Shown: piece by piece, positions 23,118-24,300 of the stretch
Layout of the letters: the number at the start of each line of letters is the position of its first letter
How positions within the stretch are numbered: position 1 is the stretch's first letter
DNA from: Simkaniaceae bacterium
GTDB taxonomy: Bacteria; Chlamydiota; Chlamydiia; Chlamydiales; Simkaniaceae
Assembly (NCBI GenBank): GCA_050248615.1
Contig: JBFWSA010000021.1
Coordinates: 1-39,280 of the forward strand
Direction of reading: 5' to 3'
DNA: 39,280 nucleotides
The notes under the pieces: generated by a model
Databases searched by the model: none
What the model was told of the DNA's origin: nothing
The model's input: only the letters and a program-made list of their open reading frames with translations
Position numbers and translations under genes: made by a program

Positions 23118-23146
23118 TTGACAGAAGGGGGGCTTTATGGTATAAT
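23118..23146 (+). promoter_or_regulatory. Perfect-consensus sigma70/sigma66 promoter of the Phe/Tyr operon
   Basis: TTGACA (23118-23123), 17-bp spacer, TATAAT (23141-23146) with extended TG. Confidence 0.9.
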
Positions 23147-23153
23147 TAACCAT

Positions 23154-23255
23154 ATGAAACACCTAGAAGAGTCTACTCAGATCCAATCTCTTCAGAAAGC
23201 AAAAGCTCCTGCTTTTGTTTACGTTACCTCTTACTTTTTCTATTTTGGCGCTTAA
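23154..23255 (+). CDS. Phe/Tyr-rich attenuator leader peptide (MKHLEESTQIQSLQKAKAPAFVYVTSYFFYFGA)
   Basis: 33 codons; 4 Phe + 3 Tyr among the last 13 and none in the first 20; lies between the promoter and the aromatic amino acid genes. Confidence 0.8.
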   Translation: MKHLEESTQIQSLQKAKAPAFVYVTSYFFYFGA

Positions 23256-23379
23256 GCGCGCCTCATCCACTATACCCCATACCAGATTCATTTTATTCGT
23301 AGCTTGAAAAAAGTCCGCTGAGGGTTACCCCTAGCGCAGCCACATTGAAAACCTATTATCTATTATAAGGTGAAACGTC

Positions 23380-24300
23380 ATGTCGCCGATGCCTATTGCA
23401 CATTTCAAAGGAAAGAGAGTTCCTTTGAGCGAGGCCAAAATCAGTATTGCTAGCCATAGTTTACAGTATGGCTCTACCTGTTACGCAGGAATGCGTGGAC
23501 ATATCCGTAAGGGATCTGTACACCTTTTCCGTGTAAAAGAGCATCATGCGCGCCTCATGCGTGCAATGCAGATTATGGGGTGGAATTTTTCCATCTCTTT
23601 AGAAGCCTTTAAGAAGGCTCTCTGTGATCTCATAGAGGCAAATCAGCCCCAGGGTGAGTTCTATATCCGTCCGTTCGTTTTTTCAGATACAGAGGCACTC
23701 AAGCTGGATTACAGGAGTTTGAAGTTTGACTTGGCGATTTATCTCGTCCCTTTTGGATCTCTTTTCGATCCCGAAAGAGGGCTTCAGGTGAAGATTTCAC
23801 CATGGAAGAAAATTGCTGATGATACGATTCCGACTAAAGCAAAAGCTGGAGGGGCTTACCTCAACTCCTGTCTTGCGACAACCGATGCCTTAAGGTCGGG
23901 GTTTGATGAAGCGCTGATGACCAATCATCAGGGGCATGTTGTGGAAGCCAGTGCTGCCAATCTCCTGATTCGTATTGGGGATAAACTGATCGTTCCCCCC
24001 CTAGCCGGTATCTTAGATGGGATCACTGTGAGGAGTGCTTTAGAGATTTTAGAGGATGAAGGACTGGCTGTGGAAACGCAAAATATTGACCTCAGTCTTT
24101 TGCGGAGTGCTGACGAGATCTTAGTCCTCGGAACCGCAGCTCAGATCACCTTCGTTGAATCTGTTGATGGGCAGCTCATTCAAGAATCCCCAGGTCCCAT
24201 TTGTCAACTTTTACGTCGGCGCATGGAAAAAATTATTAACTTAGAAGATCCTAGATTCGCTCATTGGATCACACCAACCATGGAGAAAGTTTCATGTTAA
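23380..24300 (+). CDS. ilvE: Class IV PLP aminotransferase (IlvE-like), probable aromatic amino acid transaminase here
   Basis: SLQYG, YIRP, AKAGGAYLNS, EASAANL, ILDGITV, GTAAQI. Confidence 0.88.
   Translation: MSPMPIAHFKGKRVPLSEAKISIASHSLQYGSTCYAGMRGHIRKGSVHLFRVKEHHARLMRAMQIMGWNFSISLEAFKKALCDLIEANQPQGEFYIRPFVFSDTEALKLDYRSLKFDLAIYLVPFGSLFDPERGLQVKISPWKKIADDTIPTKAKAGGAYLNSCLATTDALRSGFDEALMTNHQGHVVEASAANLLIRIGDKLIVPPLAGILDGITVRSALEILEDEGLAVETQNIDLSLLRSADEILVLGTAAQITFVESVDGQLIQESPGPICQLLRRRMEKIINLEDPRFAHWITPTMEKVSC

Follow-up and report, generated by a model that had tools for sequence, protein, structure and literature searches.

The window, by which we mean the whole 39,280-nt stretch that was analysed (positions 1-39,280, + strand, of contig JBFWSA010000021.1, Simkaniaceae bacterium assembly GCA_050248615.1), carries an aromatic amino acid operon with a short leader open reading frame (ORF) at its head. 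The genes 3' of the leader are, in order, an ilvE-type class IV aminotransferase gene, aroF, a chorismate mutase (CM) gene, pheA, aroB, aroA, aroK and aroC, and all eight are intact in the source genome. The features of the locus are as follows.

20732..22993, - strand: divergent tyrA-aroDE operon, which shares an intergenic region with the leader
23118..23146, + strand: sigma-70-type promoter, read from the sequence (12/12 match, 17-nt spacer, extended -10 with TG)
23154..23255, + strand: leader ORF of 33 codons, read from the sequence, beginning at the predicted transcription start (leaderless here)
23214..23246, + strand: control-codon run FVYVTSYFFYF, the putative sensor, pyrimidine-rich (2 G in 34 nt)
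23247..23262, + strand: short, conserved GC hairpin that carries the stop codon of the leader in the loop and that 53 of 55 homologs can form
23263..23298, + strand: C-rich, nearly G-free tract (12 C and 1 G in 36 nt), predicted single-stranded, candidate rut site
23302..23336, + strand: two further hairpins without a U tract; their sequence is not conserved, and long-spacer homologs mostly have some hairpin there
23367..23382, + strand: Shine-Dalgarno (SD)-like sequence and ilvE start, whose pairing with the Phe/Tyr run is no better than background in the source genome
23380..26377, + strand: putatively regulated genes, i.e. ilvE-type aminotransferase, aroF (DAHP synthase), chorismate mutase and pheA
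26541..30544, + strand: aroB, aroA, aroK and aroC

The promoter has its -35 box at 23118-23123 and a -10 box that ends at 23146; the 2.04-Mb genome has just one other perfect match of this form. The leader ATG at 23154 follows the -10 box after 7 nt, with no purine-rich SD sequence in between. Four Phe and three Tyr codons stand among the last 13 codons of the ORF, and none among the first 20. Set beside 1518 intergenic small ORFs upstream of genes, a comparison that rests on crude gene calls, this is the only ORF with seven Phe/Tyr (F/Y) codons in its last 13; three more have six. An earlier note on this DNA had pointed to the perfect promoter, the ATG 7 nt after the -10 box without a ribosome-binding site (RBS), the 33-codon ORF with its late F/Y cluster, a 12-bp palindrome, a C-rich and G-poor tract, and a hairpin lacking a U tract on the + strand; all of these can be read directly where it placed them. 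Its description of a Phe/Tyr operon downstream is right in that the operon is aromatic and includes aroF and pheA, but tyrA is divergent.

The 12-bp palindrome (23248-23259) proved to be part of the larger hairpin at 23247-23262 (-8.5 versus -4.6 kcal/mol), which also fits the G-10 Y-1 G+1 spacing of transcriptional pauses. Of 656 intergenic 35-mers taken at this offset, three, counting the one in the window, are as skewed as the tract that follows (at most one G and at least 11 C), and a conserved A(G/C)ATY motif lies inside the tract near 23284. The second hairpin of the earlier note corresponds to 23316-23336, with no U tract on the + strand; on the minus strand (window 23296-23345) six T follow it, which could end antisense transcription. 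One short motif is present twice, at 23177-23184 near the 5' end of the leader region and at 23282-23289 past the hairpin; its reading frame differs among homologs, and the two copies are possibly pause or protein sites. Ahead of ilvE in the window, we found no GC stem followed by a U tract that could serve as an intrinsic terminator, and neither inspection by eye nor folding gave a conserved partner for the hairpin 3' arm that could act as an antiterminator.

The aroB-aroA-aroK-aroC genes are likely on one transcript with ilvE-aroF-CM-pheA, since pheA and aroB abut in several relatives; the 163-nt gap between them in the source genome is due to a repeat (window 26371-26545) with eight other genomic copies at 83-84% identity and a predicted long hairpin; it has the look of a small mobile element that entered the operon. 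No leader was seen before the divergent tyrA-aroDE operon. The source genome (G000) has a Rho gene over the family cut-off and has TrpR, and a TyrR-type helix-turn-helix (HTH) was not found in it. Elsewhere in the same genome, trpR abuts a trpE-like gene at the end of contig C47 (L265), with an inverted-repeat-like stretch over the trpR promoter, and a second DAHP synthase gene on contig C3 (L227) directly follows another gene, without a leader.

The leader peptide has no Pfam or NCBIfam match, seven leader peptides had no exact match in the protein collection, and Rfam gave none for the window (E up to 10) or for eight homologous loci (gathering cut-off). Within the source genome, a covariance model finds this copy only, a motif scan for paralogous modules returned one unrelated match, and small ORFs rich in W, H, C, M, T, R, K or P codons were unconvincing as paralogous modules. 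An identical stretch occurs in one metagenome contig (L267), which may come from the same sample and is not independent.

The module, consisting of an F/Y codon run, a 5-11 bp GGCG hairpin and about 35 nt almost free of G, is kept in 34 of the 39 chlamydial genomes with an orthologous aroF (E 4e-108 or better, among 400 scored genomes of the phylum). The earlier note had proposed looking in relatives for a conserved short F/Y-rich ORF, and these 34 loci carry one. Carriers span five family groups, and the leader is kept whether the first gene is ilvE, aroF or CM. In G012 and G022 (ilvE 70% identical), it has 33 codons and the same ends; the locus L160, with an ilvE 70% identical to that of the window, carries the element. 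The element was not found before the orthologous aroF in G172, G215, G263 and G313, and in G023, the remaining one of the 39, the locus lies at a contig edge. The first four also have no match to pheA, yet neither do the carriers G014, G016, G339 and G365, so the link is not clean.

Three more carriers, G012, G020 and G228, have aroF truncated or missing, or CM first. In G024, the leader is frameshifted, the hairpin broken and aroF decayed, and no leader is seen in G030, G035, G027 and G034, relatives without aroF, CM and tyrA at the locus. At five Simkaniaceae-like loci (L064, L065, L066, L067 and L073), aroF is truncated, interrupted or deleted and aroB-aroA-aroK-aroC is intact; the Phe/Tyr branch seems, from these sequences, to be decaying repeatedly in this group. 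A strict pattern gave four matches in metagenome contigs, all of chlamydial type, and none in viral contigs.

The module also stands before all 15 of the closest acidobacterial CM-PDT-DAHPS orthologs, i.e. full-length orthologs of at least 60% identity from a protein search around one acidobacterial genome whose upstream DNA we inspected. Five of these leaders have Phe codons only, and seven do not match the DNA pattern that we derived from the leader end. A 49% identical ortholog (G568) has a classical terminator in place of the module. In the genome contig collection (genome_contigs), the pattern hit 88 loci: 33 with same-strand aro genes within 1.5 kb, 2 with a leader but short flanks, and 53 judged to be chance. 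Nine are labelled Acidobacteriota or its groups and precede a CM-PDT-ACT-DAHP synthase fusion; several others labelled Verrucomicrobia, Aerophobetes or Acidobacteriota carry the chlamydial-type operon, so the labels are imperfect. The DAHP synthase part of the acidobacterial fusion is 50-54% identical to that of the window, and the PDT part 22-25%. A near-identical module in two phyla could reflect transfer, old inheritance or strong sequence constraint. A covariance-model search of 150 genomes across the acidobacterial phylum, in which 25 candidates per genome were scored, matched nothing beyond the centre genome, so within this scope there is no sign that the element is widespread in Acidobacteria. 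Rho is over the cut-off in four of five acidobacterial genomes and in pieces in the fifth.

For a comparison of homologs, we used 55 loci, 34 found by orthology and 21 by the pattern, which contains F-Y-F. The ten codons before the hairpin include 3-9 F/Y codons (median 6). In a frame chosen for most F/Y, 347 of the 550 codons are F or Y, 6 are L and 2 are I, and the shifted frames hold 216 L or 125 I; the 34 orthology-found chlamydial leaders alone give 219 F or Y of 340 codons, with 5 Leu and 2 Ile. As the shifted frames are rich in Leu or Ile, the run has been selected as codons and not merely as U-rich DNA. A local hairpin of 5-11 pairs forms in 53 of 55 loci, with G-U pairs and two double changes and a loop of 3 to 7 nt. 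No significant covariation was seen (80 of 500 shuffles score at least as high, and the model alignment misregisters longer-loop variants), because the stem sequence hardly varies. The pause spacing, whose consensus we took from the available text of PMC12288461, fits 49 of 55 loci and is partly a by-product of the stem sequence.

Another fixed feature is the stretch of about 35-40 nt with at most one G after the hairpin, whose composition stays while its sequence varies. Across 42 chlamydial loci, the first 35 nt past the hairpin include 67 G and 382 C among 1470 positions (genome intergenic background 17.5% G and 17.9% C), and across 14 acidobacterial loci 41 G and 205 C in 490 (upstream 28% G and 29% C). 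The A(G/C)ATY motif lies 20-60 nt past the hairpin start in 44 of 55 loci, and a promoter resembling that of the window precedes the leader in 46. In these 46, the ATG follows the -10 box after 7 nt in 4, after 7-10 nt in 9 and after 16-37 nt in 37. The predicted leaderless start therefore fits this copy and a minority of homologs by its spacing; as a general feature it is not conserved, and the same is true of the sequence of the downstream hairpin, the two points on which the earlier interpretation did not generalize.

The peptide ends in Gly-Ala-stop in most homologs, in Gly-Val in others, and in Trp-Arg-stop in 4 of 55, where another frame runs over the hairpin; in 12 of 55 the leader runs on for 5-8 codons, and the spacer from hairpin to first gene start ranges from 73 to 216 nt. 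Such variation in frame, stop, 5' leader and spacer is hard to square with an arrest peptide and points to a device that works at the RNA level, with a ribosome reading it. In G135 (L077:9541-9728) and G218 (L082:7307-7510, minus strand), the leader ends in Trp-Arg-stop, and two copies of the 5' arm with a distant 3' arm replace the local hairpin, an arrangement that suggests competing helices. The shifted frame over the hairpin adds a Trp codon in the leaders of L221, L100, L077 and L082, which could, by their codons, sense all three aromatic amino acids.

We looked for the output of the leader in terminators and in pairing with the next RBS. Between the run and the first gene, a terminator-like site was found in 2 of 51 homologs (the 55 minus four loci without an intact first gene); in both, G009 and G319, the site is the short hairpin followed by a poor U tract. 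Textbook terminators were found in this way after F/Y-rich leaders in G278, G252 and G042, which belong to a different aroF lineage. Classical F/Y leader attenuators with U-tract terminators are seen in three chlamydial genomes (L088:8255-8590, L098:8289-8620 and L096:10440-10770, minus strand), and in G278 and G042 another terminator lies some 170-220 nt further upstream, possibly making theirs tandem attenuators.

Pairing of the F/Y run with the start region of the next gene depends on the homolog. Averaged over homologs, the cognate duplex has -10.4 kcal/mol against -8.95 +/- 0.30 when partners are permuted within groups. For 16 de-duplicated chlamydial leaders with a spacer of at most 125 nt, the values are -12.4 and -9.3 +/- 0.6 (0 of 20000 permutations), and for longer spacers -7.1 and -7.1; these permutation tests overstate significance because kin are not independent. 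Pairing weakens with spacer length (Spearman 0.67, 42 chlamydial loci): a duplex of -10 kcal/mol or better is present in 12 of 14 loci whose spacer is 100 nt or shorter, in 7 of 12 at 101-125 nt and in 2 of 16 with a longer one. The longest run-SD pairing reaches 20 consecutive pairs (G260). In 14 loci with spacers of at most 100 nt, blocking the F/Y run lowers the start-opening energy by a median of 5.8 kcal/mol, compared with 1.0 for a control block. Acidobacterial loci have no cognate pairing advantage within their group; in nine of them, a ribosome footprint frees the start in one, and four of the nine have 7-9 nt after the hairpin able to pair with the SD. The best partner of the run anywhere in the spacer was no better than in shuffled spacers (z -1.3 to +0.8, 12 loci computed).

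The copy in the window, with a spacer of 124 nt, belongs to the long class. It can form nine pairs with its own SD, and the duplex of -7.8 kcal/mol is matched by 551 of 1443 start regions of the source genome. The predicted opening energy of the ilvE start is 8.3 when free and 8.1-8.3 with a ribosome footprint, and no footprint position changes access. With the duplex at background and the footprints without effect, anti-SD pairing is not supported as the mechanism of this copy. By these models, output seems to differ by copy, short spacers pairing the F/Y codons with the RBS of the next gene and long spacers not doing so.

We are highly confident that the F/Y-codon leader ORF senses charged tRNA-Phe/Tyr by ribosome stalling, given its codons and what the available text of PMC11802643 and PMC7755916 describes of established attenuation. 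Tyr sensing should be read with the following in mind: tyrA, which is specific to Tyr, does not lie downstream, five of the acidobacterial leaders carry Phe codons only, and in the aroR leader of Corynebacterium glutamicum, only Phe is described as having mattered (PMC11802643). For the long-spacer copy, we think it on balance probable that a stalled ribosome denies Rho access to the RNA and thereby sets how far transcription reads through into ilvE-aroF-CM-pheA. Rho is favoured because a terminator and anti-SD pairing were tested for and not found, and because a C-rich, G-poor, largely unpaired tract by the stall site is common to all classes. A strong promoter, a leader ORF, an F/Y run, a hairpin, a G-free C-rich tract, the lack of an intrinsic terminator and a Rho gene are all seen in the sequence. 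RNA polymerase would pause at or just past the hairpin, allowing the ribosome to catch up. When Phe and Tyr are plentiful, the ribosome would finish the ORF and leave the RNA; the F/Y codons and the C-rich tract, joined by the hairpin, would then present about 70 nt of G-poor RNA on which Rho could load, with termination in the 124-nt spacer or early in ilvE. Under starvation, a ribosome held on the F/Y codons would melt the hairpin and leave too little RNA for Rho, and the operon would be transcribed. A loading site split by a small hairpin is also the layout of lambda tR1.

This reading has several points of contact with the literature, as far as the available texts go. A C-rich, G-poor and unpaired tract is what rut sites are described to be (PMC12121999), polarity in Chlamydia is caused by Rho (PMC7755916), and rut sites shielded by upstream ORFs (uORFs) are known (PMC12360218). 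Caution is advised by the mycobacterial cys leaders, which were predicted to be Rho-dependent (PMC1262725) and one of which was later shown to act on translation (10.1101/834739). Since Rho is nearly universal, its presence is weak support. Speaking against Rho, the G-free tract could be a plain unstructured spacer, and at about 35-40 nt it would be left mostly uncovered by a ribosome on the F/Y codons, so we assume that a partial block is enough. What stands of the earlier interpretation is a conserved F/Y leader ORF at the head of an aromatic operon, without an intrinsic terminator, with a conserved C-rich, G-poor tract and with Rho present.

In short-spacer homologs, the computed pairing of the F/Y codons with the RBS of the first gene would add a switch at the level of translation, and when closed this switch would leave the mRNA open to Rho as well. 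The two layers would be joined if the SD were occluded and Rho then acted within the untranslated gene, as the available text of PMC12121999 describes for toiL-topAI. The older or main output of the family may be translational, since an anti-SD duplex of -10 kcal/mol or better is modelled in 19 of 26 chlamydial homologs with a spacer of at most 125 nt. We offer one broader proposal as a possibility that falls short of probable: that one RNA module, nearly unchanged in sequence between Chlamydiota and a group of acidobacteria although their enzymes are 22-54% identical, senses charged tRNA-Phe/Tyr without a terminator hairpin, that its control codons double as half of a split Rho site and, where the spacer is short, as an anti-SD, and that lineages switch between translational and Rho output by spacer length.

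The same ribosome sensor could instead act on translation in all copies, with the leader RNA hiding the ilvE RBS until a ribosome stalls on the F/Y codons, equilibrium folding missing the pairings here and Rho bringing only later polarity. The strong cognate pairing of short-spacer homologs, the effect of blocking the run, the nine SD pairs open to this copy and the precedents described for the LEU element (PMC1262725), Ms5788A (10.1101/834739) and toiL (PMC12121999) all speak for it; we nevertheless consider it unlikely, as the duplex of this copy is a common one in its genome, footprints change nothing and few long-spacer loci pair strongly. The sensor could also work without Rho if the short or downstream hairpins formed a weak intrinsic terminator assisted by NusA/NusG, or a long pause. 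The hairpin is nearly invariant in two phyla, A/U-rich bases follow it in many homologs, and G009 and G319 have a weak terminator score. In this copy, however, the sequence after the hairpin is C-rich, not U-rich, a ribosome terminating at the stop codon would melt the hairpin as well as a stalled one, and the C excess would be left unexplained, which makes this improbable.

There are two further readings. We see a very small chance that a regulatory protein recognizes the invariant hairpin together with the A(G/C)ATY motifs, either an RNA-binding protein or a repressor on the DNA palindrome, with the ORF secondary. Sequence, and not pairing alone, is indeed conserved in both reading frames that cross the hairpin, and mutational work cited in PMC1262725 is described as a misfit to classical attenuation for the LEU element. 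The variable loop length, the strong in-frame selection of F/Y codons and the lack of a TyrR HTH among our finds weigh the other way, as do one-sided changes that give G-U pairs on the transcribed strand and so favour RNA over a DNA operator. It is also quite improbable that an element functional in an ancestor is now a relic in the source genome: aroF or leaders are decaying in the relatives G024, G029, G020 and G012, and anti-SD pairing is absent from this copy, but its downstream genes are intact, its promoter is perfect, its ORF is uninterrupted and has a new start context, and 16 loci from three families keep the long-spacer form intact.

The leader is real, conserved and apparently undescribed in print. 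The openly accessible literature that we searched holds no description of the element. The comparative attenuator surveys of Vitreschak (2004) and Lopatovskaya (2010) could list Phe/Tyr leaders. In the supplements of PMC4833913, Simkania appears in a genome list and nowhere else, and according to the available text of PMC2965389, hardly any of the attenuators predicted in Chlamydiae or Acidobacteria has a function, and Rho-dependent cases escape screens that look for terminators. If the proposal is true, the leader would attenuate a biosynthetic operon in response to charged tRNA with Rho as the sole effector, and it would be the first such leader peptide shown to work in chlamydiae, which are described as having few regulators and a sole proposed leader peptide (trpL), unvalidated. 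It bears on whether sense-codon stalling, when charged tRNA runs short, is enough to govern a biosynthetic operon by way of Rho alone, and it hints at how host-associated chlamydiae with their own Phe and Tyr synthesis adjust the pathway to what the host supplies. The family offers about 60 natural variants of a terminator-less amino acid sensor, for which we predict a translational switch where the spacer is short and Rho where it is long.

Among known systems, a leader called aroR reportedly precedes aroF in C. glutamicum (Neshat et al., 2014). By description (PMC11802643, PMC4046766; available text), aroR is likewise a short Phe/Tyr-codon leader ahead of a DAHP synthase gene with a stalling sensor, but it has three control codons (F-Y-F), compared with 4-9 of the last 10 in the chlamydial module, and is described as Phe-only transcription attenuation. 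The putative trpL of Chlamydia trachomatis and C. felis is also a chlamydial leader peptide, but for Trp; the available text of PMC7755916 and PMC3937554 calls it unvalidated and atypical in its authors' judgement, lists Simkania without TrpL and has nothing on Phe/Tyr. The leader works like a leader-peptide attenuator, yet it departs from the classical type in having no terminator, from the tnaC type in having no fixed arrest peptide and, in this copy, from the anti-SD type. As in E. coli pheL, trpL and hisL, a short ORF before a biosynthetic operon, conserved in relatives, has its cognate codons clustered near the end with a hairpin right after; those leaders have a terminator and antiterminator, and neither was found for this one, nor an Rfam match.

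As in tnaC, speFL and cruR (PMC12360218, as described in the available text), the uORF ribosome sits by a candidate rut site without a terminator hairpin, and the composition of the C-rich, G-poor RNA by the uORF end, predicted to be unstructured, together with the Rho gene agrees with that type. Those uORFs stall through the nascent peptide and a small ligand, whereas the predicted signal here is lack of charged tRNA, and an arrest peptide with fixed residues at the stop was not found, the end being variable and the frame shifted in 4 of 55 homologs; tnaC and speFL switch on when the amino acid is plentiful, whereas this leader is predicted to be on under shortage, before a biosynthetic operon. 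The Ms5788A polycysteine ORFs (10.1101/834739) and the LEU element (PMC1262725), again by the available descriptions, are likewise terminator-less, and the mycobacterial polycysteine ORFs are leaderless, like the predicted start of this copy. They serve other amino acids in another phylum and tie their control codons to occlusion of the next SD, a link that by computation holds in the short-spacer homologs but does not rise above background in this copy.
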